This document shows, piece after piece, positions 16,631-62,630 of a DNA stretch of 64,000 nucleotides. Under the pieces are notes generated by a model. The model had not been told where the DNA came from, ran no database searches, and saw nothing but the letters and a program-made list of their open reading frames with translations. This stretch comes from Verrucomicrobiia bacterium (GTDB taxonomy: Bacteria > Patescibacteriota > Saccharimonadia > Saccharimonadales > JAGQNK01). How positions within the stretch are numbered: the stretch's first letter is position 1; each line of letters opens with the position of its first letter. The DNA is taken from assembly GCA_035489575.1 (NCBI GenBank), contig DATHJY010000013.1, forward strand, positions 91,346 to 155,345. The letters run 5' to 3'. Made by a program: the position numbers and the translations under genes.

Positions 16631-16705
16631 TCCCGGGTAGCTCAATGGTGGAGCAAGAAGCTGTTAACTTCGAGGTTGTCGGTTCGAGTCCGACCCCGGG
16701 AGCCA
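16631..16705 (+). tRNA. tRNA-Asn (anticodon GTT), CCA encoded
   Basis: Hand fold: acceptor TCCCGGG/CCCGGGA, D-arm GCTC..GAGC, anticodon loop CTGTTAA, T-arm GTCGG-TTCGAGT-CCGAC, discriminator G, then CCA. Confidence 0.9.
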
Positions 16706-16709
16706 AATA

Positions 16710-16738
16710 TTGACAAATAGCACGTTTTGTGCTATTTT
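16710..16738 (+). promoter_or_regulatory. Consensus promoter TTGACA-17-TATTTT with a spacer palindrome; leaderless start
   Basis: TTGACA at 16710-16715. The spacer contains AGCAC-GTTTT-GTGCT. The -10 is at 16733-16738. ATG 16745 lies exactly 7 nt after the -10. Confidence 0.6.
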
Positions 16739-16744
16739 ATATTT

Positions 16745-17677
16745 ATGAGTGCTGAATTAATTGTTCATTCGGAAGTTCCTCCTCTTACATGGCAAGAATT
16801 TATAGAAACGCATCCTGTTGGATCGATTGCTCTAGATGGGTACGTTGGCGAAGGTCCGCAGTATGAACCAGAAGGCCCCTATTTAAACGCGAATCACCAC
16901 GAGGGTGTTAAGCGCCTTGAGACACTGTCTACAGCACAGCAAATACTCATGAATGTGCGTATGGGCCTAGATAAAGCCTTTACACGAGATGGTGTTTTTG
17001 CACCAAAAGTTTATGTTAATGACTGCGATCAGGATGTTTGTGCTGCCTGGTATCTTCTAAACCACGTAGAGCAGGCTAAAACTGTTACCAACCCGACTCT
17101 GAACCGATTTATTAACGTAGCAGGCACCCTTGATGCCACCGCGGGCGCTTTCCCATACGACAGGGATCTTCGAATCTTAGGTGAACTTGCTTGGGTATTT
17201 GAACCCTACACGATGTTTAGAGCTAGTGGGGAAATGGCAAGTAAGGATAATGAACAATACCGATCAGTTATTCAGAGCGTAGAAGCTAGAATTCAGCAAC
17301 ATCTGGTGGGTGGAGGAGAGTCCGCAAAGATCGATGCTCGCTATAAACTTGTGGGTGGTGGTCAAGACTGGAAAATGATTGAGGAAGTTGGCAAAGATGG
17401 GCGCGTTGGCGCGTTAGTTGATGGCATAGATGCGTATGTAGCCGTTCAAGAATTACCCGGTGAACGCTGGCGCTACACAGTCGGGCGAAGATCAGAGTTT
17501 ATACCATTCGATGTTCCTGTTCTGATAGACAGACTTAACCAAGTTGAGGCCTGTGAAAAAGACAGGTGGGGTGGCGCAACCATTATAGGTGGTAGTCCTA
17601 GGGTTAGTGGCAGCAAATTAAGCCCAGCGAAAGTCGAGAAAGTCATCAACGAGTTCATTGCCGAAGCCGAAGCGTAA
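16745..17677 (+). CDS. Hypothetical protein (310 aa), island cassette 1
   Basis: Frame of ORF 16727..17677; ATG 16745 (MSAELIVHSEVPP...). No family recognised. Acidic/His clusters (NANHHEG, NDCDQD) might hint at a metal-dependent phosphoesterase, but this is unsupported. Confidence 0.5.
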   Translation: MSAELIVHSEVPPLTWQEFIETHPVGSIALDGYVGEGPQYEPEGPYLNANHHEGVKRLETLSTAQQILMNVRMGLDKAFTRDGVFAPKVYVNDCDQDVCAAWYLLNHVEQAKTVTNPTLNRFINVAGTLDATAGAFPYDRDLRILGELAWVFEPYTMFRASGEMASKDNEQYRSVIQSVEARIQQHLVGGGESAKIDARYKLVGGGQDWKMIEEVGKDGRVGALVDGIDAYVAVQELPGERWRYTVGRRSEFIPFDVPVLIDRLNQVEACEKDRWGGATIIGGSPRVSGSKLSPAKVEKVINEFIAEAEA

Positions 17678-17695
17678 GTTTCGAAGTACGAGCGC

Positions 17696-18073
17696 TTGGG
17701 ATCGTTACTAGCTGATTGCTATATCTCGCTTTATTGCGGTTATAACGTACTCTATCGTTGTGAGCCAAGCATTTACAAATACCACATTACGTTTTATTTG
17801 TCCTGCGAGTACGAGGGCTATTATGCTATCTGGAAAGATTTAGTCTCTCCTGATACAAAAATCGCTGAAGATAAAGCTGGCGCACTAAGTCGCGCAACCA
17901 CTCCTGAAGAAGCTGCAACCATCGAAAGAGTATTCGGTTATTGTGCAATCGACAGATTGTCAGTAGCTCAAGAAACACTCGATGATCCTCTTACGAGTAG
18001 AGGTGCAAAAATGGGTGCTTATATATCTAGAGATTCAGTGGCTCGGGGCATAGAACCATATCGTCTTTCTTAA
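17696..18073 (+). CDS. Doubtful ORF (TTG start) covering repeat copy A
   Basis: 125-aa ORF with no ATG until near its end. Its N-terminal part overlaps the 45-bp repeat. The C-terminal half looks protein-like (TPEEAATIERVFGYCAIDRLSVAQETLDD). Confidence 0.25.
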   Translation: MGSLLADCYISLYCGYNVLYRCEPSIYKYHITFYLSCEYEGYYAIWKDLVSPDTKIAEDKAGALSRATTPEEAATIERVFGYCAIDRLSVAQETLDDPLTSRGAKMGAYISRDSVARGIEPYRLS

Positions 18074-18133
18074 AGTTGCGAAATACGCCCATTAGAGAGG
18101 GCCAGCTAAAGACATTTGCTATACTAGGTTCAC

Positions 18134-18379
18134 ATGAGCACCGACGAATTCACCAAATTATTTCAATACCTGCAGCAGATGGATAGAAAAATTGAAAAAC
18201 AAACTGAAACCATGGCCACAAAAAACAACATAAACCAGATACTAAATCGCTTAGACTCGATTGAAAAACAATTAGAAATTTCTGAAGATGAACGGTTAGT
18301 CATGGGCCATCAACTAGACAGGCTTGATCGTTGGGTTCGTGAAGTAGCGGACAAAATTGGCTATAAGCTGACTGTTTAA
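18134..18379 (+). CDS. Small coiled-coil protein (81 aa)
   Basis: Heptad-like sequence MSTDEFTKLFQYLQQMDRKIEKQTETMATKNNINQILNRLDSIEKQLEISEDERLVMGHQLDRLDRWVREVADKIGYKL. Confidence 0.5.
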   Translation: MSTDEFTKLFQYLQQMDRKIEKQTETMATKNNINQILNRLDSIEKQLEISEDERLVMGHQLDRLDRWVREVADKIGYKLTV

Positions 18380-18522
18380 TTTTTAGCGAAGGGGGACTGG
18401 GACTCACCGTGCGCTGATCCAGGTACCTTCGGCGACCCCGAAACTTCATCTTTGAGAGCAAGTTCTCAAGAGAAGATTTCCTTGCAAAAGTCCACTGGAC
18501 TTTCTCACCCAGGAGCCAATTT

Positions 18523-18550
18523 TTGACAAATACCACTTTTGTGGTATTTT
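18523..18550 (+). promoter_or_regulatory. Consensus promoter TTGACA-16-TATTTT with a spacer palindrome; leaderless start
   Basis: TTGACA at 18523-18528. The spacer contains ACCAC-TTTT-GTGGT. The -10 is at 18545-18550. ATG 18557 lies 7 nt after the -10. It is 87% identical to the 16.7-kb copy. Confidence 0.6.
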
Positions 18551-18556
18551 ATTTTT

Positions 18557-18856
18557 ATGATTGAAAAATATGTGATCACAGACGGACCAGATAAAGGTCA
18601 CATTAAGGACATAGATATTGCTATGGACCTTGCTTACACCGAAGACGCTTGGCGAGAGGAAAATGGTGGAATTCCTATGAATCAACCGCCAGAACGCTTA
18701 GGTAAACCAGAGTTCCGCTTTCGGCAACTAATAAATAGTGAATTAAGTCGCTTAATTCTAGAGGATATTGTATTAACAACAAAAAATGAACTTAACGAAA
18801 TTTATAATACTGAAGCCGCAAGGCAGGCTGATCCTGAGGAAAACAATGAGGATTGA
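18557..18856 (+). CDS. Hypothetical protein (99 aa), island cassette 2
   Basis: Frame of ORF 18539..18856; ATG 18557 (MIEKYVITDGPDKGHIKDIDIAMD...). Acidic C-terminus. Confidence 0.5.
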   Translation: MIEKYVITDGPDKGHIKDIDIAMDLAYTEDAWREENGGIPMNQPPERLGKPEFRFRQLINSELSRLILEDIVLTTKNELNEIYNTEAARQADPEENNED

Positions 18857-18868
18857 CTACGTTATAGA

Positions 18869-19039
18869 ATGGTTAATCGTTTGGCATCTTTAGGTGAAGA
18901 TAACGGTTTTGATGACCAAACCTGCTACGAAATTCTTGATATGCCACTCCCAGAAGCTTTTGAGACTGCATACAGCTACTTAACTCAAGCAGGTTTAGAG
19001 GCAGACACCATTCTTGCGGATTATACGGAGGCAGATTAG
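18869..19039 (+). CDS. Small acidic ORF (56 aa)
   Basis: My translation: MVNRLASLGEDNGFDDQTCYEILDMPLPEAFETAYSYLTQAGLEADTILADYTEAD. It starts 13 nt after the previous stop and is below the ORF-track length cutoff. Confidence 0.3.
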   Translation: MVNRLASLGEDNGFDDQTCYEILDMPLPEAFETAYSYLTQAGLEADTILADYTEAD

Positions 19040-19106
19040 TAGACCAGGTCCAACTTTATCGCAGTTATAACTTCCTCTATCGTGCTGAGCCAAAGATTAT
19101 GAACTA

Positions 19107-19136
19107 AAAAGCACCTCTGTAAGTTGAGGTGTTTTT
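19107..19136. terminator. Rho-independent terminator (A-tract / GC stem / T-tract, potentially bidirectional)
   Basis: AAAAAGCACCTC-tgtaagtt-GAGGTGTTTTT. Confidence 0.6.
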
Positions 19137-19204
19137 AATTTGGGATTGCCCCTTCATAAAGCGGATAGCAAAACTTTTCGACCAGATTGATTTAAGAACA
19201 AGCA

Positions 19205-19234
19205 TTGACAAACTGTATATTACAGAAATATACT
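19205..19234 (+). promoter_or_regulatory. Consensus promoter TTGACA-18-TATACT with CTGTA-tat-TACAG operator-like palindrome; leaderless brnT
   Basis: TTGACA at 19205-19210 and TATACT at 19229-19234. ATG 19241 lies 7 nt after the -10. Confidence 0.6.
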
Positions 19235-19240
19235 AAGTTT

Positions 19241-19546
19241 ATGGATATCTTGCCCGAGCCGCTGTCCTTCCAATGGGATAAAGGCAATATCCCTAAGAAC
19301 CTCCAAAAGCATAACGTGACTTATCAAGAAGCTGAGGAAATATTTGTCAACGATCCGTTTATCTTAGCCAGAGACAAAGATCATTCTAAGAGCGAGCGTC
19401 GTTATTGGGTATTAGGTCAGACTAAATCAAATCGAAAGCTCTTTGCAGCTTTTACGATTAGGGGCACTAAAATAAGAGTGATATCCGTTAGGGATATGAC
19501 ACAAGCAGAGGAGGATGTATATGAAGACTATGAAACAAATTCCTGA
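19241..19546 (+). CDS. brnT: BrnT-family toxin (DUF497 ribonuclease toxin)
   Basis: MDILPEPLSFQWDKGNIPKNLQKHNVTYQEAEEIFVNDPFILARDKDHSKSERRYWVLGQT...RVISVRDMTQAE shows the typical FEWDxxKxxxNxxKHGVxFxEA pattern. Confidence 0.8.
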   Translation: MDILPEPLSFQWDKGNIPKNLQKHNVTYQEAEEIFVNDPFILARDKDHSKSERRYWVLGQTKSNRKLFAAFTIRGTKIRVISVRDMTQAEEDVYEDYETNS

Positions 19547-19799
19547 GTTCAAGAACGAGCAAGAAGAAGCCGAGTTCTGGCGCACCCACAACTCTACAGA
19601 ATACGTAGATTGGTCAGATGCCAAGAAAACGGTATTCCCCAACCTCAAGCCAACTACCGAATCGATATCTCTGCGGCTACCGTCACCACTGCTGGCTCGC
19701 CTTAAAGAGTTGGCAAATGATCAAGATGTACCTTATCAGTCGCTTATGAAGGTATACCTAAACGATCGCGTAAAGCACGAGCTTAAGTCCAAGAAATAA
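19521..19799 (+). CDS. brnA: BrnA-family antitoxin (RHH/CopG-like C-terminus)
   Basis: MKTMKQIPEFKNEQEEAEFWRTHNSTEYVDW...SISLRLPSPLLARLKELANDQDVPYQSLMKVYLNDRV. GAGGAGG lies 6 nt upstream of ATG 19521. The gene overlaps the brnT 3-prime end. Confidence 0.75.
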   Translation: MKTMKQIPEFKNEQEEAEFWRTHNSTEYVDWSDAKKTVFPNLKPTTESISLRLPSPLLARLKELANDQDVPYQSLMKVYLNDRVKHELKSKK

Positions 19800-19961
19800 C
19801 TTTCTTTTACGGCAGACCAGAAAATTTGGAAACTGTCCATTAGGTCGAGCCAAACAAGGACTGTCCCCTAGGGGGGCGGTTTTTGTTTGGCTTTCGAGCC
19901 GGCCCCGAAGCAAGACAACGCACCAGCTTTAGCTGACAGAAGGTTGTCAGATATCAATTGG

Positions 19962-26891: not shown

Positions 26892-27773
26892 ATGAACTTA
26901 CCTCCCGAAGTACGCAGCTACGTCATAAGCATGATGCAGCAGGGTTATGGGCCCGAACAAATCCGCGCTGGTCTGCAGCAGGCGGGGTGGGACACTGCTG
27001 CTGCCGCGCAGATAGTGGCCTTTTATTTTGCACCCCAACAATCCATGCAATCTGCACATCCCCTGCGCAGAGCCACCCTCAAAAGATTTATCATACTGCT
27101 CGTAGCATGCCTTGTGATCGGTGGAGGCGTGGGAGCATATATGCTTCTGAAAGATCGCTCTGGGCAGCACAATGATCCGCATTCAAAGCAGGATGAACAC
27201 CAGTCAAAAGACATCACCAACCAACCAAGCGCGGACGCCTACACTGAGTTTGCGCAGCTAAAAGGGACAACCCTTTTACTGTCGAAGAAATGGACCACCA
27301 AACCCCGGAGCGAGCCGTCGTCATATGTATCTATTCTTAATTTCGACCCAGGGGCGGTTGCGTCCGAATTAAAGGCTGATGATCGTTATCCCAGGAATGC
27401 TAATTTTTATCACGATGTTAAACGAAGAGACCTCAAAACATACCCATATTCACTGGATAAAATGTATGAGGTTCAGCTGTTTAGCAGACAGCTACCCATA
27501 CCCGCCACGTTAACCGAAGAAGCCATCAAAACCCAAGAAAAAGACAAAATAGAAGACCTGCAGATGTACAAGGTTAACGGCATTACGGTGGCTGACTACA
27601 TAACCAAACCCGGCGAAAACGCGCTTGATCAAAGGATTATCCTCATAAGAGACCAGGCAGGCACCAAAGAAGTGACCGTTGTCATAAACCCCAACCAAAG
27701 CCGGGACAAGATCACCAAAGACAATTTTGATGGCCTTATGGAACTGATAGGTTCTATCAAGTTTGTACCATAA
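26892..27773 (+). CDS. Hypothetical single-pass membrane protein
   Basis: Frame of ORF 26763..27773; ATG 26892 (MNLPPEVRSYVISMMQQGYGPEQIRAGLQQAGW...). TM helix FIILLVACLVIGGGVGAYMLL. Confidence 0.45.
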   Translation: MNLPPEVRSYVISMMQQGYGPEQIRAGLQQAGWDTAAAAQIVAFYFAPQQSMQSAHPLRRATLKRFIILLVACLVIGGGVGAYMLLKDRSGQHNDPHSKQDEHQSKDITNQPSADAYTEFAQLKGTTLLLSKKWTTKPRSEPSSYVSILNFDPGAVASELKADDRYPRNANFYHDVKRRDLKTYPYSLDKMYEVQLFSRQLPIPATLTEEAIKTQEKDKIEDLQMYKVNGITVADYITKPGENALDQRIILIRDQAGTKEVTVVINPNQSRDKITKDNFDGLMELIGSIKFVP

Positions 27774-27921
27774 CTGATTCTTTTATTTCTAATTGATTAG
27801 AGTTAACCAAGCCTGTAAGATGGGCTGGATACCGGTTAGGCATTGCCTATCAAGTAGATAGAACACGGCCTAAATACCCCGGTATTGCTATTTTTAATCG
27901 GAAAACCCCTAAGGAGGGTTA

Positions 27922-28923
27922 GTGTTGCGTTTTCGGGTTGCTCCGCTTTGTGGTGCCGCTTTGTTGGTTGTGGGCCTGTCGGCTTGCGGCCTTCCCAAGC
28001 ACGATGAGAACTCCGGTGCCCAGGTGGACATCGTGGCAGCCGGCGACAGCTACAGCACCGGGCAGGGCTCTGCTGGTGCCTACTACGCCAACGGTGACGG
28101 TGATGCCAAGAGCCCAGACGATCCTCGGACCACCTGGCGCCAGGGCACACCAGTAGCAGGCGACCTGGGGTGTCACCGCAACCACGACGCGGCAGCCGAG
28201 CAGCTGTGGCGTGAGACAGACAGCGCTGGCTCGTTCATCAACGCCTCGTGCAGCGGTGACGTCATTGCCAACCTGACCGGCAGCAATGTACCGCCGCAGT
28301 TGAACGATTTCGATGTGGCCCAGCGAGAAGATGTCGAGCTGATCACCATCACGGCTGGGGGTAACGACCTCCATTTCACGAGCATCGTGGCCAACTGCTT
28401 CTTCCCCGGCGTCGCGGCCAATGGTCCGTGTCGAGAGCAGCAGGACATTGCCCTCGACCTCCTGGACGCAAGCGGTGGGAAGAGCCAGATCCAGAGCCAG
28501 ACCCAAGCGGCTCTGGAGCACCTGGGTCAGCAGTTCCCGAATGCACTCGTGGTGCTGATCGGCTACCCCCTCATCTTCGAGGGAAGTTCGTTCGTGCTGC
28601 CGGCTGACACCACGCATGCCGTGTTCGACCCAGCTGCTGCCATACTGGACGGCATCGAGCTGCTCAACTCGCAGCAGGCCCAAGTGGTGGACGACCTCAA
28701 CGACTCGTTCGGCGAGAAGCGGTTCGTGTTCATGCCACTCCACGAGGACGACAACATGGGCGACTTCGACGGACACGGTCTGGGCGGAGCAGGGCAGGAC
28801 TTCCTGAACGATCTCAGCGCCACGCCGGATTCCAGCGAGTGGGTCCATCCCAACGCCGCCGGTACGGCCGCCATGGGCGATGCCCTCCGCGACCTGCCAG
28901 AGGTACAGGCGTTGTTCGCCTAG
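27922..28923 (+). CDS. SGNH/GDSL-family lipase/esterase lipoprotein (G+C-rich gene)
   Basis: GTG start lies 5 nt after AAGGAGGG. Lipobox is LVVGLSAC. SGNH blocks are present: VAAGDSYSTG, ITAGGNDL, WVHPNAAG. One 60-nt sample counted by hand gave about 70% GC versus about 50% in the flanks. Confidence 0.7.
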   Translation: MLRFRVAPLCGAALLVVGLSACGLPKHDENSGAQVDIVAAGDSYSTGQGSAGAYYANGDGDAKSPDDPRTTWRQGTPVAGDLGCHRNHDAAAEQLWRETDSAGSFINASCSGDVIANLTGSNVPPQLNDFDVAQREDVELITITAGGNDLHFTSIVANCFFPGVAANGPCREQQDIALDLLDASGGKSQIQSQTQAALEHLGQQFPNALVVLIGYPLIFEGSSFVLPADTTHAVFDPAAAILDGIELLNSQQAQVVDDLNDSFGEKRFVFMPLHEDDNMGDFDGHGLGGAGQDFLNDLSATPDSSEWVHPNAAGTAAMGDALRDLPEVQALFA

Positions 28924-28979
28924 CTTCGCAGCTGGGTGCAGCAAGTGTTTATCCGATTACCGCTGGGGTAACTCAGTAG

Positions 28980-29033
28980 CTTACAGATGGGGCATGAAAC
29001 CCGCCCGCCGGCAAGTAGTGCCCCATCTGTAAG
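28980..29033 (+). terminator. 15-bp perfect inverted repeat with a 24-nt loop directly after the SGNH gene
   Basis: CTTACAGATGGGGCA (28980-28994) and TGCCCCATCTGTAAG (29019-29033). There is no clear T-tract. Confidence 0.4.
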
Positions 29034-29210
29034 GATTTATTCAACCTACCAAGTCCGCTGATCTATTGGAATTTCCCAATATCTCCTCTCTAGGGCGTCC
29101 TCGATCATCGTAATTTCATACTCTAGCCCACCAAAAACTCCATCACATAAATACGAAAGAGCCCTGGCCTTTGGCAAGGGCTCTTTTTGCTGCAACAGCG
29201 TACCGTACTA

Positions 29211-32200
29211 CTAGCGACCAAACTTGGAGGCAAGCAGGCTCAGGTCAAATATGTTGACCCTGCCGTCATGGTTGATATCGGCCCTGCCGAGATCAGATCC
29301 GCTGCGACCAAATCGAGAAGCAAGGATACTTAGGTCGTAGATGTTCACTCTGCCATCTTGGTTTATGTCCTCGTCAATGTAGCTAGGCGTCGGTGGCGTA
29401 GGAGTGGGCGTTGGAGTAGGCGTTACGTTGTTTACCGTAAAGTCGATCCTGCCACTGGAGTTTTGGTTACCAGCTGCGTCCCGGGCTCGAGCTATAACGG
29501 AGTGATTGCCATTATTCAGGCCCAGGTTGATGGTGTTGAGGCTAAATCGATAGGGCGCAGACATATCCGTACCTCTGCTCTGGCCGTCTACCACAAATTC
29601 TACTTGGGATACTCCAACGTTATCAGAAGCGTTGGCAGTGACATCGAAGGTGCCCGAGACAGTGGCATTGTTGGCTGGTGCCGTAATAGAGACTGACGGT
29701 GCGCTCGTGTCAGGGGCTGGGGTTGGATTCGGTGTGGGTGTTGGAGTAGGGGTAGGAGTTGGGGTAGGCGTGGGAGTCGGTGTAGGTGTTGGAGTGGGCG
29801 TAGGGGTGGGTGTAGGAGTCGGTGTGGGGTTCGGGGTTGGATTGGGGTTAGGTCCAGGAGCTGAGATGCCAGGGTTGATATTACAGATCGGGTTAGTGCC
29901 ACAGTACAGCTGGCTTCTTGGCAGCACAGTTCTATACTGGTGTGCGCTCTCTACATAGGCGTTGAAAATTTGGCTGTCGCGAGCAGGGTTGGCTTCTCTC
30001 GCCCCGAAGTTAACCTCGACACGTATTGGATACTTTTGATCCTTGGTCAGCTGTATGGGAGTGCCCATGACTGTCTGCGAATTTGGCTGCCAAGCGTCCA
30101 ATACCAGTTGATTGTTGATCCAGATACGCATACCAACATCTTGGCTACGCCCAAAGGTGTAAGGCTCGGTAAACTGGGCCTGGAATTCTCCGGTCCATCG
30201 ACCAGTAAAGGGCTGTCCCCATGGCTTTATCCATAGTGGTGGCAGGGTATCGTCCTCGGCATAGCTTTCGCTAACCGTAGGCTCGTGCCTGCTGTAGACT
30301 TTTGTAGCAAAGTTACCCGTGAAGTATTCGGCCAGCAGGCCATCGCCGGTGCCGTAGTTGTCTGGCGCAAAAGGTGCAATATCAGTCCTGACGTTCCCGG
30401 CAGTAATCTGATAGGCTTGGCCGCCCTTGGGTTGGACCCGGACGCGGTTACTAGGATGGCTACTGTCGTTACCATAGGCTATGGCAGTGCCAGGTCCTTG
30501 GAACGTTGAATTCACAATGTCTATCCTCTTAGGTATGTAGTTACCCACTCCTTGTATCTGGACGGCATGTTGCGTCCAGTTCCTAAAGATATTGTCATGG
30601 AACAGAGTAGGCACCGGAAGCGCGGGGGGATCAGGCAGCTGGGCCTCAGACGCCGCTACCAGGACGGGGGTAATACCCGCTCCATCCCATACCATGTTTT
30701 CGTACTTCTGCTGCCTGATCGATGAAGTATTAGCCTGGAGTTTTATACCGGCCGTACGGTTACCGTATACTTCGCCGTTAAAGTAGTGGTAGTCGTTGGC
30801 GTATGCACCGTGGATGATACCGTAGGTCTGATTGTAGTAAGTGACAAAGTTGCCAGTAGGGTGCAAGTGTGGGGAGTTTTGCCAAACCTGGATACCATTT
30901 TGGTTGTGGTTGTGCGTTATGTTGTTGTCAAAGCCCCAGACGCCGTGGTCACCGTTGAACCAGGCAAATCCGCCTTGTTCACCAGAGCCCTGTATGCCTA
31001 CGGCGGCATTATTCGTAGCTATGTTACCAACACCGCCCAGCAGGAAGAACGACATGCCGTAGTGACGCGGTATAGTATTTGCCACCAGGTTATGGTTCCA
31101 GACAATGTCATGGCTGTCGCTATTTTTATCTAGATCATGCGGATCCCACCAAAAGGCTGCCGACTTTACCTTATAAGCAATGTTGTTACTCAGTGTCACA
31201 CCATGGCTGGCATGAGTCACAAAGGTATGGAAGTTGCCGTCGCGAGCTACCACGCCATCAATGAGCGAACCGCGTGATGCATCACCCATCAGGTGCATGT
31301 GTATGGCATAGCGGCCTAACTTAAAGTTGGGTTGTTTAATAGCCTCGTCCACACCGCCCGAACCCATATGACGCAGTTGGGCATCCCGTATGAACTGGGG
31401 TTTGTCGGAATGGATGAAGATGTGAGAACTGCCGTTAAAACGACGCTTATCATCCCAGTCGTTTTCGAAAGGTCGAGCAATGGCTGTACCCTCTATACGA
31501 ACGTTTCGCGTCAGGTTACCCACTTCCGCCGTCCACTTGTTGTTTACCATAGGGTGAGCCCTACTTGGACGATCGTTAACTACAACGGTATTGCCCGAAA
31601 TAGATTCAATCTTGCGCTCATCGAAAGCGTTGTAGCTTGACGCACCAACAGTTGGTGCCTCTGTGGGAGAGACAACTATCTCATCGCCCACTCGCCAGCC
31701 CACTGGTACCTCCTTGAGAACAATTGTCCTATTAGCTACCCCGTTGTCTGCGTTTGCGGGGTTCCATGAACCTGCAAGGTTTGTCCAGCTGGTCTTAGAT
31801 GCACCGTCCAGATCCAACTGACCGGTATCCATAACCCACATGCCCACGTCTGTATCGAGCGGTATCATGCCGCCGCCCTGGAAGCCTGGCTCATTAACCT
31901 CTACAAACTGCACAAAATGTTCTACGTCAGGCGTGGCGGGCTTCATAGTAAGCTTGCCCGTAACAATGAAGTTAGCATTGGTAATAAATTTGGAGCTTTT
32001 AGCGGGATCAAAGGTCAGGCTACCCCTGATGTAAGTCGTGCCCATCTTGGGGCTCGTGGTGAGATCAAAGATAACATTGTTACCAACAGTCACCGTGTCA
32101 CCAGTTGCCGGCACACGACCAGTAGACCAAACTGTGGGGTCGCTCCAGCGGCCGTCCTTGACACTGCTAACGGCCTCGGCTGCCCGCGATAGCACCAACA

Positions 32201-32330
32201 GGGAAGCACCCGCTACCGCGAACACAACTACGAAAGCCGCCATCATGGTTCGCTTAGGGTCTCTGGCCAGCTTGCCGTATAGTCGTCTTACTTTGGATGT
32301 GATGTCTTGAGCTCGGGGTGCCGATGCCAT
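29211..32330 (-). CDS. Secreted multidomain protein: G8 + parallel beta-helix + PA14 + (PT)n linker + Ig-like + type-I dockerin
   Basis: G8 region: RWSDPTVWSTGRVPATGDTVTVGNNVIFDL...IRGSLTF. The middle is long and beta-helix-like. PA14 region: LLAEYFTGNFATKVY...FTGRWTGEFQAQFTEPYTF...MRIWINNQLVLDAW. PTPTPT runs are present. Ig-like region: SVSITAPANNATVSGTFDVTANASDNVGVSQVEFVVDG. Dockerin: DINQDGRVNIYDLSILASRFGR...DINHDGRVNIFDLSLLASKFGR. ATG 32330 is preferred (AGGAG 6 nt upstream); the alternative ATG 32390 overlaps the upstream stop (ATGA). Confidence 0.75.
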   Translation of the reverse strand: MASAPRAQDITSKVRRLYGKLARDPKRTMMAAFVVVFAVAGASLLVLSRAAEAVSSVKDGRWSDPTVWSTGRVPATGDTVTVGNNVIFDLTTSPKMGTTYIRGSLTFDPAKSSKFITNANFIVTGKLTMKPATPDVEHFVQFVEVNEPGFQGGGMIPLDTDVGMWVMDTGQLDLDGASKTSWTNLAGSWNPANADNGVANRTIVLKEVPVGWRVGDEIVVSPTEAPTVGASSYNAFDERKIESISGNTVVVNDRPSRAHPMVNNKWTAEVGNLTRNVRIEGTAIARPFENDWDDKRRFNGSSHIFIHSDKPQFIRDAQLRHMGSGGVDEAIKQPNFKLGRYAIHMHLMGDASRGSLIDGVVARDGNFHTFVTHASHGVTLSNNIAYKVKSAAFWWDPHDLDKNSDSHDIVWNHNLVANTIPRHYGMSFFLLGGVGNIATNNAAVGIQGSGEQGGFAWFNGDHGVWGFDNNITHNHNQNGIQVWQNSPHLHPTGNFVTYYNQTYGIIHGAYANDYHYFNGEVYGNRTAGIKLQANTSSIRQQKYENMVWDGAGITPVLVAASEAQLPDPPALPVPTLFHDNIFRNWTQHAVQIQGVGNYIPKRIDIVNSTFQGPGTAIAYGNDSSHPSNRVRVQPKGGQAYQITAGNVRTDIAPFAPDNYGTGDGLLAEYFTGNFATKVYSRHEPTVSESYAEDDTLPPLWIKPWGQPFTGRWTGEFQAQFTEPYTFGRSQDVGMRIWINNQLVLDAWQPNSQTVMGTPIQLTKDQKYPIRVEVNFGAREANPARDSQIFNAYVESAHQYRTVLPRSQLYCGTNPICNINPGISAPGPNPNPTPNPTPTPTPTPTPTPTPTPTPTPTPTPTPTPTPTPNPTPAPDTSAPSVSITAPANNATVSGTFDVTANASDNVGVSQVEFVVDGQSRGTDMSAPYRFSLNTINLGLNNGNHSVIARARDAAGNQNSSGRIDFTVNNVTPTPTPTPTPPTPSYIDEDINQDGRVNIYDLSILASRFGRSGSDLGRADINHDGRVNIFDLSLLASKFGR
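29715..29852 (-). repeat. Tandem hexanucleotide (Pro-Thr)n coding repeat
   Basis: The plus strand reads GGTGTGGGTGTTGGAGTAGGGGTAGGAGTT... and encodes PNPTPTPTPTPTPT... on the minus strand. A shorter second PT run lies at about 29386-29427. Confidence 0.85.
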
Positions 32331-32386
32331 GTTAGTCTCCTGTCTTTGCTTTGTGAGGTGCTTTATCTTTCGCCTTACTGCCGCTC

Positions 32387-33904
32387 TCATTGCTTGCCTT
32401 TATCGTCCTCGTTGGGCGAGACAATACTGCCAGGATCAGGCTTTTGCAGACCAGACACCTTGTCGACTAGATTACCAGTCGGATCTTGTGGGGCAGGAGG
32501 AGTACCTGCTGGGCCAGCTTGTGTAGGTCCTGCACCGTGGCTTCCAGGCCAGTTTGGCACGAACCCTCGGCGACGCTTGACCAAGACGAAGGCTCCGACG
32601 ACGACCAGTGCCACCATAGCTGCGATGCTAGCTGGTAGTAAGAGGGATGGGCGGTTTTCGACAACGGCGAGCTCTTTGAACACAGCCTGCTGCAGTATGA
32701 CGTCAGCAGCCTGAGCGCCATCCTCTGCGGTCTTGATGGGCTGTCCCTTGACCGTGACTTCTTGTGAGTATTTCTTACCCTCTTGCTCGTACTCTACCGT
32801 GTGGTTGCCAGGTGCAACGTCATCAAAGTCAACGCCACCGCTTTCGTCAGTCTTGGCTTCTATAGGGTCAGAGTGCAACACTACCTTCTTATTACGAAGA
32901 GGCTTTTCGTACTTGTCTACCAGATACATATGGATCTTGTAGCCCTTTGTCTTAAAGGTCTCTACCGGCATTTCTGTTCTATTGCCTTGCTCGTCTTCGG
33001 CTATCACCTGGTAGTAGAACTTTGTACCGGGCAATATGACGCTCTCGTTCAGCATAACCTCGTGCTCGGTACCGAAGCCGGTTAGCTCTGTCTGGGCAAC
33101 CAGCTGATTCTCTAGACCATATTTTATGAACATGCGGAATTTTGTTTTAGCCTTGGCCAAGAAGAGTGCTTTGGTGAATTCAATGCGGCGCCTCTGTACG
33201 TCTAGATCAATAGCGGGCTTGCTACCCGAATTGTTAGCGGTGCCACCGGAAGAGCCACTGCCACCACTACCCGAGTTGCTAGAGCCACCCGAGGAAGAAC
33301 CGCCTCCGGATGACGAACCACCGCTCGGCGAAGGTGAAGGGGAGGGACTTGGCTTAGGATTAGGGGTGGACGGATTGGGGCTAGGGGTTGGGGAAGGGGA
33401 AGGAGCAGGCGCCGGAGAAGTAAGGGTTATAGTCGCGCTGCCATTGCTAGGAGTGGTACCAACGCCCACTAACGCACCGGTGCCAGAGACCTGCAGATTA
33501 GTTGTGCCACTGCCAGCAAGGGCCTTGAACGTTACCTGCGTAATAAGAACATCCGTAGAAACTGTTCCTGGGCTAACAAATCGAACCATGCCCACGGTGC
33601 CACCGCCGCCCGAGCCTGGTAGTTCGTACGGAAAGCCAGACCCACCTGAATTGGCAGATACAAACTGGAGCTTAGACTGATCGTAAGTCAGAGTAGCATC
33701 GATTGTATCTATAGCCGTTCCCGGGTTGACCCGCACACCGACGGTTATATTGTTACCATTCTGAACACTGCCTGCTCCCGTGATACTGAACTGACCCGGC
33801 GCCGCAAGGGTATGCTGCAGAAGAAAAGCACCACCAAATAAAGCAGTGAGCCCTCCAACCATAAACATTCTAATTTTTGGAGAGAACGATCGTAACTTTT
33901 TCAA
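32387..33904 (-). CDS. Membrane-anchored cohesin-like scaffold protein
   Basis: Signal/TM N-terminus. Cohesin-like ~140 aa: FSITGAGSVQNGNNITVGVRVNPGTAIDTIDATLTYDQSKLQFVSANSGG...VLITQVTFKALAGSGTTNLQVSG. A P/S/G linker follows. A Cna-B/carboxypeptidase-regulatory-like module reads YKIHMYLVDKYEKPLRNKKVVLHSDPIEAKTDESGGVDFDDVAPGNHTVEY. A TM helix (ASIAAMVALVVVGAFVLV) + KRRRG and a Pro-rich tail close the protein. Confidence 0.6.
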   Translation of the reverse strand: MKKLRSFSPKIRMFMVGGLTALFGGAFLLQHTLAAPGQFSITGAGSVQNGNNITVGVRVNPGTAIDTIDATLTYDQSKLQFVSANSGGSGFPYELPGSGGGGTVGMVRFVSPGTVSTDVLITQVTFKALAGSGTTNLQVSGTGALVGVGTTPSNGSATITLTSPAPAPSPSPTPSPNPSTPNPKPSPSPSPSPSGGSSSGGGSSSGGSSNSGSGGSGSSGGTANNSGSKPAIDLDVQRRRIEFTKALFLAKAKTKFRMFIKYGLENQLVAQTELTGFGTEHEVMLNESVILPGTKFYYQVIAEDEQGNRTEMPVETFKTKGYKIHMYLVDKYEKPLRNKKVVLHSDPIEAKTDESGGVDFDDVAPGNHTVEYEQEGKKYSQEVTVKGQPIKTAEDGAQAADVILQQAVFKELAVVENRPSLLLPASIAAMVALVVVGAFVLVKRRRGFVPNWPGSHGAGPTQAGPAGTPPAPQDPTGNLVDKVSGLQKPDPGSIVSPNEDDKGKQ

Positions 33905-34448: not shown

Positions 34449-34631
34449 GGTTTTCTCCTATTAATTGTCTGTCCTCATCATACACCAGCTGCCGTTTACA
34501 CTTTCGGTTTGAGCCCGTTTTCGCTACACGACTTTAGCATTCTCGCGTCGATTCCATAGTACCCACCGGATGCGCGTCCAGATGTGATATGGGGTGGCGA
34601 GAGAATGCTAAAATCGTGTAAGATAGGCACT

Positions 34632-36161
34632 ATGGCTACCTTAAAAGAACTGCGCGACGAACGCTTACGAAAACTAGAAGAGCTAAAAAAGCTCGACATC
34701 AACCCATACCCGGCCACCACCTCCAGAACCCACACAGCCCAAGAAGTCGCTGACAAGTTCGAGGAACTGCAGGGACAAACCGTCACGCTCGATGGTCGTC
34801 TTATAAATACCCGCAAATTTGGCAAGATCGCTTTCTTTGTACTAAAAGACGCATCCGCAACCATCCAACTCTTCCTCAAGCATGACACCCTAGCAGGTCT
34901 AGAGGCGCCAAACAGTCAGCTTGGCTTTGAGCAGATCAATTTGCTAGACCCTGGTGATTTTATCGAGGCCACCGGACCTGTCATAAAGACGCAAACCGGA
35001 GAAATATCTATCGACGTGCAGAAGCTTCGGGTGCTAACCAAGTCGCTCCGGCCCATGCCCACAGAGCAAGACGGCTTCACTAATAAAGAAGAACGCCTCC
35101 GCCGACGCTACATAGACACAAATGTTAATAAGGACGTTTACGAGCGTTATCTGCGGCGCAGTACCTTTTGGCAAGCAACACGCCACTTCTTATTAGATGA
35201 AGGATTTGTAGAAATAAACATTCCCGTGCTAGAACTCACCACCGGTGGGGCAGACGCCACGCCGTTTGTCACCCATATGGACGCCCTAGACCAAGATTTC
35301 TACCTGCGTATTAGTCACGAGCTACCACTGAAGCGGCTGCTGGTCGGGGGATACGAAAAAGTATTTGATATCGGCCCACGTTTTCGCAACGAGAACTATA
35401 GCGACGAACACCTGCCAGAGCATGTGGCAATGGAATGGTACTGGGCTTATGCCGACTGGGAAAAGGGCATGGAACTAACTGAAAGACTGGTACGTGCTAT
35501 CGCCGATAAGACCTGGGGCAAGCGTGCATTCAAGCTCGCCAACGGCATGGATCTAGACCTAGGAACCGATGACCAGAAGTGGCCACGTATTAGCTTTGTA
35601 GATGTAATCCAAGAGCACTACGGCCTGGACGTCTTCACCTGTACGCTTGACCAAGTCAAAGAACAGCTCAAGAACCATCAGATAGAAGTAGAAAAAACCG
35701 AGAACCGCTCTCGTGGCATAGATAAGCTCTGGAAAAAAGTACGCACGACTATTGCCGGACCCGCCTTTTTGGTAGACATACCCACCTTTTTACAACCGCT
35801 GGCCAAAACCCAGTCCGGCAAGCCGGAGCTGACCGAGCAGTTCAACTTGCTCCTTGGCGGCAGCGAACTCTGCAAGGCCTATTCAGAGCTGAACGACCCA
35901 GTAGATCAGCTCAATCGCTTCAAAGAGCAGCAAGCCCTTCGTGACGCCGGTGATGACGAGGCCATGATGCTCGACGTTGATTATGTAGAAGCGTTGGAGT
36001 ACGCCATGCCACCAGCCTGCGGCTTTGGATTCTCGGAGCGCTTATTCTGGTACCTAGAAGGCGTAACCGCCCGCGAAGGCGTGGTCTTCCCCCAGCTCAG
36101 AAGGGAAGTAGACGAAGTCACCAAAACCATCTATCCCGAACTGTATAAAGACAAAAGTTGA
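34632..36161 (+). CDS. lysS: Lysine--tRNA ligase, class II
   Basis: Frame of ORF 34584..36161; ATG 34632 (MATLKELRDERLRKLEELKKLDINPYP). OB-fold region: VTLDGRLINTRKFGKIAFFVLKDASATIQLF. Class II motifs: FRNE, ELNDP, GFGFSERL. Confidence 0.9.
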   Translation: MATLKELRDERLRKLEELKKLDINPYPATTSRTHTAQEVADKFEELQGQTVTLDGRLINTRKFGKIAFFVLKDASATIQLFLKHDTLAGLEAPNSQLGFEQINLLDPGDFIEATGPVIKTQTGEISIDVQKLRVLTKSLRPMPTEQDGFTNKEERLRRRYIDTNVNKDVYERYLRRSTFWQATRHFLLDEGFVEINIPVLELTTGGADATPFVTHMDALDQDFYLRISHELPLKRLLVGGYEKVFDIGPRFRNENYSDEHLPEHVAMEWYWAYADWEKGMELTERLVRAIADKTWGKRAFKLANGMDLDLGTDDQKWPRISFVDVIQEHYGLDVFTCTLDQVKEQLKNHQIEVEKTENRSRGIDKLWKKVRTTIAGPAFLVDIPTFLQPLAKTQSGKPELTEQFNLLLGGSELCKAYSELNDPVDQLNRFKEQQALRDAGDDEAMMLDVDYVEALEYAMPPACGFGFSERLFWYLEGVTAREGVVFPQLRREVDEVTKTIYPELYKDKS

Positions 36162-36229: not shown

Positions 36230-36595
36230 TCAGCGATCGCAGCTGCAGCGCGTGCTGCGCAGATGGGCGTGGTAGTTGACGAAGCAGTTAACCAAAATCA
36301 TGGCCCATAGACCTTCGATGTCGTGCGCGAGCGCACAGATCAACCCGATCAGCAGGTAGCCCGCGGCGTAATGCGCCCCGTGCACCAGAGGCAGCATGGC
36401 CGAACCCTCTCGGACGCGCATAGCACCCCACGCCACCAGGATGAAGGCCCACAGGCCGCCAGCGTTGTGATCGCCCAAGACGGCCAACAGGATGGCCAGC
36501 AGCCCTCCCACGTAGGTCAAAAAGACCGCCTTGGTCATCGCATCGATGGAGCTGAGCCAGCTCGTCGCGTGGTCACTATCGTTTGCTGTGGTCAC
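36230..36595 (-). CDS. Small polytopic membrane protein (G+C-rich), paralog 1
   Basis: Frame of ORF 36230..36667; GTG 36595 lies 3 nt after AGGAGGG. ...GGLWAFILVAWGAMRV...GLWAMILVNCFVN is paralogous to 36855..37187. Confidence 0.5.
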   Translation of the reverse strand: MTTANDSDHATSWLSSIDAMTKAVFLTYVGGLLAILLAVLGDHNAGGLWAFILVAWGAMRVREGSAMLPLVHGAHYAAGYLLIGLICALAHDIEGLWAMILVNCFVNYHAHLRSTRCSCDR

Positions 36596-40522: not shown

Positions 40523-40966
40523 ATGAGCACCACACTGTTTGGAGAAGGCGGGGTACAGGACTACAAAGCAGCACCTGATTTTTGGATGGTTTATACACCA
40601 AAAGCTGGCTCAGAGGCTTTTACTAATGTGTTGCATGCGTTGTACTATTTGCCAGAGAATTACAAGCTCATGATCATGACCGCGGATGTGACCACAGATG
40701 AGCTGGCGCCACTAGTAGAGTGCATAGATCTCATGAAGCGCGTACGGTTCGAGACAACAACGGAGCTGCCAGCAGAGGCAACTCCGTTTTCATTTGGTCG
40801 GGCACTCGTATCAGACGAAGCTCAGCCGGCTAAGTCTTCTGTCCTAGTAACCTCCGAGGCTACCAGCGCCCTCAGCGGTGACTACAACTCGGGCTTTACG
40901 GTCCTGGCCCAAAGCCCACCAGCCCTGGCAAGCGCCATCCTGAAGATCGCCCACGCTACTGTTTAG
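40523..40966 (+). CDS. Hypothetical protein (147 aa)
   Basis: AGAGGGAAG lies upstream of the ATG. No family recognised. The 3-prime end overlaps the convergent otsA-otsB gene by 11 nt. Confidence 0.45.
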   Translation: MSTTLFGEGGVQDYKAAPDFWMVYTPKAGSEAFTNVLHALYYLPENYKLMIMTADVTTDELAPLVECIDLMKRVRFETTTELPAEATPFSFGRALVSDEAQPAKSSVLVTSEATSALSGDYNSGFTVLAQSPPALASAILKIAHATV

Positions 40967-54906: not shown

Positions 54907-55019
54907 GAAACACATTACACCGGACCTTGCATTTTCACTTTCGTCCTTTTGGACTCATCAGCATGAATGCACATTCATGGAGTGAAATGACAAGCAGAAT
55001 ATAAAAGAAAGTGGCGCGG

Positions 55020-55067
55020 ATGGGGCGACGAAGTATGAAGCCTAAGGCTCCTTCTTCGTCGCCCCAT
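55020..55067. terminator. 14-bp perfect inverted repeat directly 3-prime of the G+C-rich membrane gene
   Basis: ATGGGGCGACGAAG (55020-55033) and CTTCGTCGCCCCAT (55054-55067). Confidence 0.45.
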
Positions 55068-55072
55068 CGCGA

Positions 55073-55423
55073 TCACGCTCCGCCGAGAACCAGCAGACTG
55101 GTGCCGATACCCAGCAACACGGAGCAGGTGGCAGAGAACAGGGCGTACCGTGGAGTGTTGGGAGACGACTTGCCGATCTGGAAGAACGCCAGGACCGCGA
55201 AGAAGTACTCGGACACCCAGAGCAGGACCGCCACCAGAGTGGACGAATCCAGATCGGACTGCCTCCAGAGCACGAAGACCGCAACCGCCTCGACGATGTT
55301 AGCCACGACAGCCCAGAAAGCTCTCGCTGGAGTGAAGGTGTCCTTCCTGCCGATCAGCAACACGGAGCCCAGGAGGCCAAGCACCACAGTGGTGTACAGC
55401 CAGATCAGGGAAAAAGTGTACAT
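55073..55423 (-). CDS. Small polytopic membrane protein (116 aa, G+C-rich)
   Basis: Four hydrophobic helices (LIWLYTTVVLGLLGSVLLI, FWAVVANIVEAVAVFVLW, LVAVLLWVSEYFFAVLAFF, LFSATCSVLLGIGTSLLVLG). Codons are GC3-rich. Confidence 0.5.
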   Translation of the reverse strand: MYTFSLIWLYTTVVLGLLGSVLLIGRKDTFTPARAFWAVVANIVEAVAVFVLWRQSDLDSSTLVAVLLWVSEYFFAVLAFFQIGKSSPNTPRYALFSATCSVLLGIGTSLLVLGGA

Positions 55424-55735
55424 GTCAGAACCTTGTCTTCTCGATCTCGACCACTATCCGCTCGTGGAGGTCGCCTACGCCAAAGGGTAGGTGTGCTTTC
55501 TTTTGCACAAAGATGAGATACAAACCCAGCCTATGCTGGACTCATAACTCACCTTTATGCGTCTGCTTGTCAAAGTACTCATTACATCTGTAACAAGTTA
55601 GTTTATTATAACATAAAAAATACTACTATGCAACCGTTACCGCACACATCTGTCTGGGCTATGAAATATTTTATAGTTGCCAATATATAAGTAGTCATAA
55701 TGGACCGTGCCAACCTAATAAGGAAGGAGGCTATC

Positions 55736-62494: not shown

Positions 62495-62630
62495 GCCACG
62501 GGCGCTAGGCCTTCTTTCAACTGAAACAACATTTCTCCCCAACGGCTCATGACACATGTGAGCTGTGCCACCCGACCCTCATCCGAGAGTCACGAACCTT
62601 CCAAACCCAACAACCGCACCTGGAGGTGCA

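Follow-up and report, generated by a model that had tools for sequence, protein, structure and literature searches.

How a GC-rich gene for a predicted surface hydrolase came to lie in a genome of about 50% GC (G+C content) is the question raised by a 64,000-nucleotide (nt) stretch of contig DATHJY010000013.1 (assembly GCA_035489575.1, positions 91,346 to 155,345), referred to here as the window. The gene lies at 27922-28923 on the forward strand (stop codon included) and encodes a 333-amino-acid (aa) SGNH/GDSL hydrolase lipoprotein; the assignment draws on the open reading frame (ORF), a match to PF00657, the ratio of nonsynonymous to synonymous divergence (dN/dS), an AlphaFold (AF2) model and Foldseek comparison. 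A first-pass annotation, made from the sequence alone, had proposed that this SGNH gene was taken up from a high-GC donor and might derive from an actinobacterial host. It is considered highly probable that a functional SGNH lipoprotein gene was indeed acquired horizontally from a high-GC genome; that the donor belonged to the Actinomycetota specifically is favoured with much less assurance. A related locus, L001 (SRR33471251), in which an orthologue of 89% identity is flanked by the same neighbours, serves as the main point of comparison.

The composition of the gene is distinct from that of its surroundings. GC measured in 200-nt windows is 0.40-0.47 at 27.5-27.9 kb, climbs to 0.59-0.67 over 27.9-29.0 kb and returns to approximately 0.50 beyond; a maximum-likelihood fit with two change points delimits a block of 27972-28942 (GC 0.640 inside and 0.501 outside; log-likelihood ratio 28.7), and this block is essentially the coding sequence 27922-28923. 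The abrupt step that had been described at about 27.92 and 28.95 kb is thereby confirmed, and the two samples counted by hand at the time are exact (0.70 for 28021-28080 and 0.50 for 27661-27720). The intergenic region upstream of the gene has a GC of 0.41. GC of the whole window is 0.509 and its 1-kb windows average 0.508 (standard deviation 0.038), among which the SGNH block is the second highest. The gene itself has a GC of 0.634, with 0.68/0.45/0.77 at the first, second and third codon positions; the third-position value (GC3) compares with a mean of 0.547 (standard deviation 0.097) over 63 ORFs, so that codons ending "almost exclusively" in G or C, as first stated, was an overstatement of a GC3 of 77%. 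The gene ranks fourth of 49 by Karlin codon bias, and its dinucleotide distance delta*, 0.169, exceeds the mean of 0.077 (standard deviation 0.028; z = 3.3). The proposed check of GC, GC3 and codon usage, run against the window, thus finds the gene atypical in all three; composition, codon usage and oligonucleotide signature all deviate from the host, and the edges of the deviation coincide with the gene.

The deviation extends to the protein. The ratio of GARP to FYMINK residues (G, A, R and P to F, Y, M, I, N and K) is 1.88 for the SGNH protein, whereas the window proteome has a ratio of 1.21 and the other family members have 1.0-1.6, so that the SGNH protein is the most GC-shifted of its family by amino-acid composition; calibrated against the comparison loci, this value corresponds to a genome of roughly 58-62% GC. 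Among 80 named loci the difference between gene and flank GC spans -0.08 to +0.075, and the SGNH gene here stands at +0.13. The ancestral GC3 of the gene lies between 0.77 and 0.865, depending on how many of the strong/weak differences are counted as decay. Taken together, the segment at approximately 27.9-28.95 kb most probably represents a single-gene acquisition by a member of the Saccharimonadales, after the gene had resided for a long time in a genome of about 60% GC or higher, most likely that of an actinobacterium.

The start of the gene carries a second line of evidence. A Shine-Dalgarno (SD) sequence, AAGGAGG (27911-27917, forward strand), is located 4 nt ahead of the GTG at 27922, which is the first start codon past the in-frame TAA at 27910-27912; both the strong SD and the GTG start, as first annotated, are present and conserved in L001, while an adjacent TTG is not conserved. 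GC3 exceeds 0.70 in five genes of the window: the SGNH gene, 36245-36595 on the reverse strand, and 55011-55490, 61478-62494 and 62565-63611 on the forward strand; the four besides the SGNH gene have GC3 values of 0.73-0.87 and none has a Pfam match. GGAGG together with a GTG or TTG start is found in four of these five genes, compared with GGAGG in none of 41 genes of ordinary GC (Fisher's exact test, p of about 3e-5); in a set of 45 genes with crudely called starts, GGAGG precedes only three, all of them GC3-rich, and any five-nucleotide SD core precedes only seven. Many of the ordinary genes instead show a TAnAAT-like box located 6-8 nt upstream of the ATG (for example ahead of the genes at 26892, 37579 on the reverse strand, 23904, 51992, 4843 and 34632), which suggests that leaderless mRNAs are widespread in this member of the Saccharimonadales. 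Since GGAGG with GTG or TTG is confined to the GC3-rich genes, the SD and GTG of the SGNH gene are part of its foreign signature; the gene would have arrived with its own ribosome-binding site and start codon. The start contexts of 27922-28923 and 36245-36595 are nearly identical (CCCTA[A]GGAGGG..GTG). The latter encodes a 116-aa protein with multiple transmembrane (TM) segments that is conserved in L001 (GC3 0.82, synonymous divergence (dS) 0.48); the 338-aa product of 61478-62494 has a signal peptide and a TM segment, and 62565-63611, whose true start is likely the GTG at 62631, encodes a lipoprotein-like protein (..TSVGAAC|SSS). These three genes are the ones that share GGAGG and a GTG or TTG start with the SGNH gene. 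At least four of the five GC3-rich genes are predicted to encode envelope proteins, the stretch from 61.5 to 63.6 kb has the most deviant dinucleotide signature of the window, and it appears that high-GC DNA entered the genome on several occasions.

A rival view is that the gene is native and owes its GC to gene-specific selection or mutation, through codon bias, mRNA structure or biased gene conversion. The presence of four further GC3-rich genes in the window would fit this view, as would the maintenance of GC3 in two lineages with low dS, the lack of mobility signatures at the locus, and the frequency of distant SGNH paralogues in Saccharibacteria. A native origin is nonetheless regarded as very improbable: the shift extends to the amino-acid composition, the dinucleotide signature is foreign to the window, the GC-rich genes initiate translation in a mode that differs from that of the native genes, the native SGNH genes of Saccharibacteria match or fall below the GC of their flanks, and approximately 15 billion proteins include no orthologue from another member of the Saccharimonadales.

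A sharp step in composition can also be produced when a high-GC fragment is mis-joined into a Saccharimonadales contig during assembly or binning, and the metagenome-assembled genome (MAG) at NCBI that holds an identical protein is labelled "Verrucomicrobiae", so errors of binning or labelling do exist around this genome. The identical SGNH protein is however encoded on contigs of three or more independent origins, among them Logan SRR7026570, ENA ERZ27268085 and an NCBI/JGI contig of about 359 kb, which come from different samples and pipelines; a comparison of two of the assemblies shows no base difference at either junction. In L001, where the neighbouring proteins are 70-96% identical, the orthologue occupies the same site with the same contrast in GC (gene 0.636, locus 0.497). 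The independent assemblies and the L001 orthologue exclude the chimeric junctions that the first-pass annotation had asked about, and the chance that the locus is an artefact of this kind is regarded as negligible. With the composition, the change points and the non-chimeric junctions in agreement, its central proposal of acquisition from a genome of higher GC is upheld.

The recipient is, from its sequence, a soil-type member of the Saccharimonadales (Saccharibacteria/TM7) with a GC of about 50%, in keeping with the Saccharibacteria-like genome guessed at first. The lysyl-tRNA synthetase (LysRS) of the window is approximately 80% identical to scores of proteins, among whose source names nearly all are "Candidatus Saccharimonadales" or "Saccharibacteria"; a sister lineage (JGI 3300078620) has a LysRS that is 91% identical. 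The gene content fits: many hypothetical surface proteins, a cohesin/dockerin pair, an OtsAB fusion, SmpB and a MacB-type ATP-binding cassette (ABC) transporter. Because the LysRS and gene content are those of Saccharimonadales, the "Verrucomicrobiae bacterium" label on the MAG with the identical protein (HTE58361.1) is probably a binning or labelling error; other close LysRS relatives are labelled "Bacillota" or "Magnetospirillaceae" and probably belong to mislabelled or misbinned MAGs. The 51% GC of the window and the lifestyle of its organism resemble those of Ca. Teamsevenus rhizospherense, a soil Saccharibacterium with 49.95% GC and no fatty-acid synthesis (PMC6031116). The LysRS of L001 (13988-15949) carries a C-terminal DUF2000 domain and is 73% identical to the LysRS of the window (34584-36161), while the genes beside them are 82-96% identical. 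Most other Saccharimonadales have LysRS within a conserved block of the order RF1-L31-S2-EF-Ts-RRF-UppS-RseP-ProRS-GreA-LysRS, from which it has been relocated in the window lineage.

Comparison with L001 also bears on when the gene arrived. The syntenic proteins of the two loci are 70-96% identical, the outliers being a methyltransferase (53%) and a gene remnant; by parsimony, the insertion would predate the split of the two lineages, and alternatively the gene may have spread between them by homologous recombination soon after that split. The dS of the SGNH gene, 0.42, is the lowest of eleven gene pairs, the three nearest genes having values of 0.93, 1.65 and 0.97, and identity at third positions is 0.77 for the SGNH gene against 0.57 for the flanks (95% confidence interval of the difference 0.13-0.26). 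The low dS possibly reflects entry after the lineages had begun to diverge followed by spread through recombination, or else constrained synonymous sites; because a neighbour of ordinary GC (40523-40966) has a similarly low dS, late entry counts as no more than a possibility. The dN/dS of 0.14 between the two orthologues indicates that the SGNH gene is functional and under purifying selection. A 341-aa ORF on the opposite strand (27919-28944) exists as first described, where it was called an artefact of high GC, and that reading holds: the sense gene contains no TTA, CTA or TCA codons, while its L001 orthologue contains one CTA and one TCA that interrupt the antisense frame, and the antisense ORF is rejected as a real gene.

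The encoded protein is, judged by its motifs, an intact SGNH hydrolase, as had been proposed. It scores 34.1 bits against PF00657 (Lipase_GDSL; cut-off 23.6) and 29.5 bits against PF13472, which is below the threshold of 32.9. In a family alignment of ten sequences 45 columns are invariant, among them those of every catalytic residue and of four cysteines. Block I consists of the invariant G41-D42-S43-Y44, in which the nucleophile Ser43 (codon 28048-28050, forward strand) aligns with the GDSYS motif of structures 4HYQ and 5MAL; the invariant block II glycine is G103; block III, also invariant, comprises G146-G147-N148-D149 (28357-28368), with Asn148 as the oxyanion-hole residue; and block V is E306-W-V-H309 (28837-28848), in which E306 and the catalytic H309 are invariant and align with the D-S-Y-H-P segment of 4HYQ. 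The acidic residue at position -3 of the catalytic histidine is therefore Glu306, where Asp is usual. Cysteines C84, C110, C159 and C170 are invariant, align with those of secreted Streptomyces enzymes and probably form two disulfides. The AF2 model has a mean predicted local distance difference test score (pLDDT) of 80 and a predicted template-modelling score (pTM) of 0.83, residues 1-21 falling below a pLDDT of 50; Foldseek gives a probability of 1.00 to many SGNH structures, with template-modelling scores on the target of 0.80 for both 5MAL and 4HYQ. The Pfam score, invariant blocks I, II, III and V and predicted three-layer alpha/beta/alpha fold together place the protein in the SGNH/GDSL superfamily.

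The N-terminus (M-L-R-F-R) is predicted to be a lipoprotein signal peptide (27922-27987, forward strand) with R3 and R5 in the charged n-region, a hydrophobic h-region from A7 to G18 and the lipobox L19-S20-A21-C22, the lipobox cysteine being residue 22 (codon 27985-27987); these are the features of a signal of the signal peptidase II (SPII) type, and SPII-type signals have been predicted in Saccharibacteria (PMC7427843). The lipobox is present as first noted, although its description as actinobacterial in style does not hold, since LSAC is a generic lipobox. Family members P0002 (the L001 orthologue) and P0160-P0165 have the lipobox cysteine at the same position and an equivalent signal layout.

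The family in which the protein falls is small. Among approximately 15 billion proteins (5.8 billion clusters and 1.84 billion representatives) two clusters in all, its own and one other, exceed 50% identity to the SGNH protein. In an exhaustive phmmer (HMMER) search over the 1.84 billion representatives only nine have E-values below 1e-30, of which P0002 is 89% identical and the others 37-46%, after which E-values drop to 1e-23. These relatives (E 1e-43 to 1e-62) form a "DDPR" clade of about 12 members, namely P0002, P0003, P0307 and P0159-P0166. In the recipient lineage the distribution of the gene is patchy, and it is absent from the other Saccharimonadales LysRS neighbourhoods examined. 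In a neighbour-joining (NJ) tree the DDPR clade is monophyletic with 68% bootstrap support and internal nodes of 24-32%, and no named sequence falls inside it. Most members carry extra domains, either one or two N-terminal malectin domains, a C-terminal PD40 propeller or a C-terminal domain of about 230 aa and unknown kind; the bare catalytic domain is found in the window protein and P0165. P0160-P0165 share with the window protein both the lipobox and an (L)P-x-H-x-E-N/M-G/S-P linker, and the window copy is the most GC-shifted member of the clade.

Three of the relatives, P0003, P0307 and P0159, raise the prospect of a transfer within the Patescibacteria, from another Saccharibacteria-like genome. 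They are the closest proteins beyond the orthologue (40-43% identity by BLASTP/MAFFT, 41-46% by phmmer), group weakly with the window protein and lie on contigs of 48-51% GC, where the gene's own GC is only slightly raised; one of the loci of the set, L002, holds an eight-gene array of type IV secretion system (T4SS) pilins of the kind described for Saccharibacteria (PMC7427843). At least one of the three genomes looks Saccharibacteria-like; among the members of the clade, P0163 alone is on a contig of 66% GC. The shift in amino-acid composition requires long residence at high GC, and the immediate donor was therefore not a relative of 50% GC, which could not supply a GC3 of 0.77 together with a GARP/FYMINK ratio of 1.9. 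The three proteins also have malectin domains and ordinary signal peptides rather than the lipobox layout, carry two indels that are absent from the window protein, and are joined to it with a bootstrap of only 24%; a donor within the Patescibacteria is accordingly judged improbable.

P0163 (L086, 1423-3213) has a gene GC of 0.585 in a contig of 0.663. Its GARP/FYMINK ratio is 1.27 in the SGNH domain, 1.89 in its own C-terminal domain and 2.32 over the contig. The case mirrors that of the window and hints at a transfer in the opposite direction. Cluster searches with genes adjacent to the close relatives gave no named match, and a tblastn comparison among the comparison loci was informative only for the ABC-F protein of L092, which is 49% identical to those of Saccharimonadales loci. 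A plasmid search with the C-terminal domain shared in the family gave no match, and a search with the pentapeptide protein of L086 returned repeat noise only.

The identity of the high-GC donor has to be read from more distant relatives. Searches of PDB sequences with a profile are headed by three Streptomyces enzymes, the phospholipase A1 (PLA1) of S. albidoflavus (4HYQ, E 2.7e-16), the lipase SrLip of S. rimosus (5MAL, E 1.2e-13) and the esterase of S. scabies (1ESC, E 1.1e-12); Foldseek likewise ranks 5MAL and 4HYQ best (E 1.7e-11 and 4.7e-11) with 1ESC next. The SGNH protein and these enzymes have in common the motifs GDSYS(S/T)G, GGND and xxH-P-(T/N)-A-x-G and the aligned cysteines, and the Streptomyces enzymes are extracellular, like the predicted site of the SGNH protein; by similarity, the protein may be of the lipase/PLA1 type. 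Identity is however only about 20%, and the SGNH protein is approximately 100 residues longer, with insertions that include an invariant S-x-DDPR loop, has Glu rather than Asp at position -3 of the catalytic histidine, and is predicted to be lipid-anchored where the Streptomyces enzymes are freely secreted.

Named genomes point in the same direction: the best 80 matches among 185,579 species genomes comprise 62 Actinomycetota, 17 Saccharibacteria and one Chloroflexota; all five plasmid matches are from Streptomyces or Rhodococcus and all three phage matches are Gordonia phages, although no close homologue of the SGNH gene is present on the plasmids or phages searched, and viral structure matches of the protein are limited to generic tail-fibre SGNH domains. 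The same wider clade includes large (about 720-830 aa) SGNH-domain proteins of Saccharibacteria and their Actinomycetaceae counterparts (for example L019, L051, L014 and L024), at 23-29% identity; such proteins occur in Saccharibacteria and in their known host family, but they are multidomain distant paralogues rather than orthologues and look native, with GC equal to or below that of their flanks. The nearest-neighbour check proposed in the first-pass annotation therefore has a divided outcome, in that Actinomycetota are among the neighbours but named ones reach only 23-29% identity, the relatives at 37-46% being metagenomic proteins; of a host-derived gene, the foreign, high-GC origin stands, while an actinobacterial host as donor is not established.

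A high-GC donor outside the Actinomycetota, for example among Chloroflexota, Deinococcota, Gemmatimonadota or Proteobacteria, would leave the acquisition itself intact, differ from it in donor only and imply no host relationship. The close family has no taxonomic placement and the neighbours of P0163 in L086 are uninformative; one Chloroflexota match occurs in the wider clade, and the PD40 propeller of P0160, which is closest to genes of Streptomyces plasmids, also matches Deinococcus and Microvirga at 42-45%. Against such a donor, the wider clade is overwhelmingly actinomycetotal in genomes, plasmids, phages and solved structures, and the known hosts of Saccharibacteria are Actinomycetota, with which they co-occur in soil (PMC8406219). 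A non-actinobacterial source is consequently a serious but minority prospect, and an origin from the host is attractive and agrees with each of the indirect lines. For experimentally profiled host-epibiont pairs a lack of evidence of transfer has been noted (PMC8406219), which would make a host-derived gene the less usual case. Reported acquisitions by Saccharibacteria, such as the arginine deiminase system (PMC8764695) and nrdD and ldh (PMC7427843), are similar in that a reduced epibiont genome gained a discrete function from outside its phylum; the SGNH gene differs from them in being strongly unameliorated and in encoding what is predicted to be an envelope-acting hydrolase.

Several observations weigh against acquisition from an actinobacterial donor and the function proposed for the product, and must be set beside the evidence above. 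GC3 is undecayed in both lineages, and the dS of 0.42, below the 0.93-1.65 of the flanks, may reflect constraint and not recent arrival. For the phylum of the donor the evidence consists of relatives at 23-29% identity and of indirect hints, and the NJ tree joins the window pair with the malectin-fused members from genomes of about 48-51% GC, at 24% bootstrap, and not with the high-GC member; the fusion of relatives to malectin domains, which bind carbohydrate, points to esters of glycans rather than lipids as the substrate. Neither Lgt nor LspA was seen among the scanned genes of the 64-kb window. The SGNH locus has no integrase, transposase, tRNA or significant flanking repeat, and an empty site was not found: the LysRS contigs of P0041, P0077, P0075 and P0058 are non-syntenic, the contig of P0040 stops within the adjacent gene for a 1059-aa protein, and scanning metagenomes with the gene on the upstream flank gave no match.

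The flanks of the gene were considered for traces of the insertion. An 8-nt perfect inverted repeat, TAATCGGA/TCCGATTA, is present at both edges of the insert (27895-27902 and 28952-28959), extends to 13 of 16 complementary positions and is conserved in L001; it is probably due to chance, such a repeat being expected by estimate about once in every ten such loci. A reading of the locus as an integron attC site or a miniature inverted-repeat transposable element (MITE) was dropped, as there are no core sites and the flanking repeat is at chance level. Downstream of the gene, a conserved intergenic element (28945-29035) composed of a small stem-loop and a large hairpin is 93% identical to L001, against 65% in the next 100 nt. 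The hairpin (28980-29033) lies between convergent genes and was identified as an inverted repeat and by folding; its arms (28980-28994 and 29019-29033) are 100% complementary over 15 bp and enclose a 24-nt loop, and the 130-nt stretch that contains it (28921-29050) folds with a minimum free energy (MFE) z-score of -3.4. The perfect long-loop hairpin of the first-pass annotation is thus real but is not a canonical intrinsic terminator; with its 24-nt loop and a tail of GAUUUAUUC, which has no clean U-run, it was rejected as a Rho-independent terminator, and a terminator scan that called 29166-29182 did not call it. The element has no Rfam match, no second copy in the window and is absent from viral contigs; the single stem difference in the L001 hairpin is uncompensated, two distinct sequences being compared. 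The hairpin is a probable transcript-end or stability element shared by the convergent genes.

The alignment between window and L001 runs to approximately 29140 and then breaks. In L001 the convergent gene is intact and encodes 193 aa; in the window only a remnant of its last 30 or so codons persists (29049-29138, reverse strand; tblastn 53% identity over 30 aa), the rest having been replaced by a 1059-aa gene that is absent from L001. That gene (29211-32390, reverse strand) encodes a surface protein with G8, beta-helix, PA14 and Big_7 domains, a long PT-repeat linker and a C-terminal dockerin; it adjoins a gene for a cohesin-domain protein (32387-33904, reverse strand), and the two products possibly form a cohesin-dockerin surface assembly. 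Elsewhere in the window, a low-GC island (16631-19800; GC 0.38-0.46, GC3 0.30-0.41) begins directly 3' of a tRNA-Asn (16631-16705) and ends with a BrnT/CopG toxin-antitoxin pair (19205-19799), its remaining genes having no Pfam match; different genes occupy this position in L001, and the island resembles a mobile element that inserted at the tRNA.

As for what the acquired gene may do, the product would be exported via the Sec pathway and lipidated at Cys22, with the signal peptide cleaved by signal peptidase II, leaving an enzyme anchored on the outside of the cell membrane in a wall-bearing, single-membrane epibiont. It is expected to act as a serine esterase with Ser43 as the nucleophile, a His309/Glu306 relay and an oxyanion hole formed by Gly103 and Asn148. 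Its substrates could be acyl esters of neighbouring (host) cells, in their envelope lipids or in acylated glycans, and the fatty acids or lysolipids so released may be imported by a lineage that is auxotrophic for fatty acids. Patescibacteria are reported to lack fatty-acid and phospholipid synthesis, with no lipid uptake route yet identified, and an attack on host envelopes by phospholipases has been proposed (PMC11665869). A role in lipid scavenging or envelope attack is put forward tentatively, as a possibility somewhat short of even.

A broader proposal, judged unlikely but of interest for what it would imply, is that GC-rich envelope genes were captured repeatedly from one or more actinobacterial hosts along with their GGAGG and GTG/TTG starts, that a phospholipase/esterase at the contact surface strips acyl chains from the envelope of the host, that the DDPR family may move in both directions and that the unameliorated genes could be used as host markers. 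If it were true, a lipid-anchored esterase would fill the missing lipid-acquisition step of Patescibacteria, and unameliorated genes could predict the hosts of uncultured Saccharibacteria. Taken for itself, the locus is a well-documented yet ordinary transfer of a single gene from a very common enzyme superfamily; clear gene transfers from host to epibiont are nevertheless scarce (PMC8406219). The SGNH lipoprotein is a definite candidate with which lipid scavenging or envelope attack could be tested biochemically and, together with the other GC-rich, SD-led genes, may offer a genomic clue to the host of this uncultured lineage.

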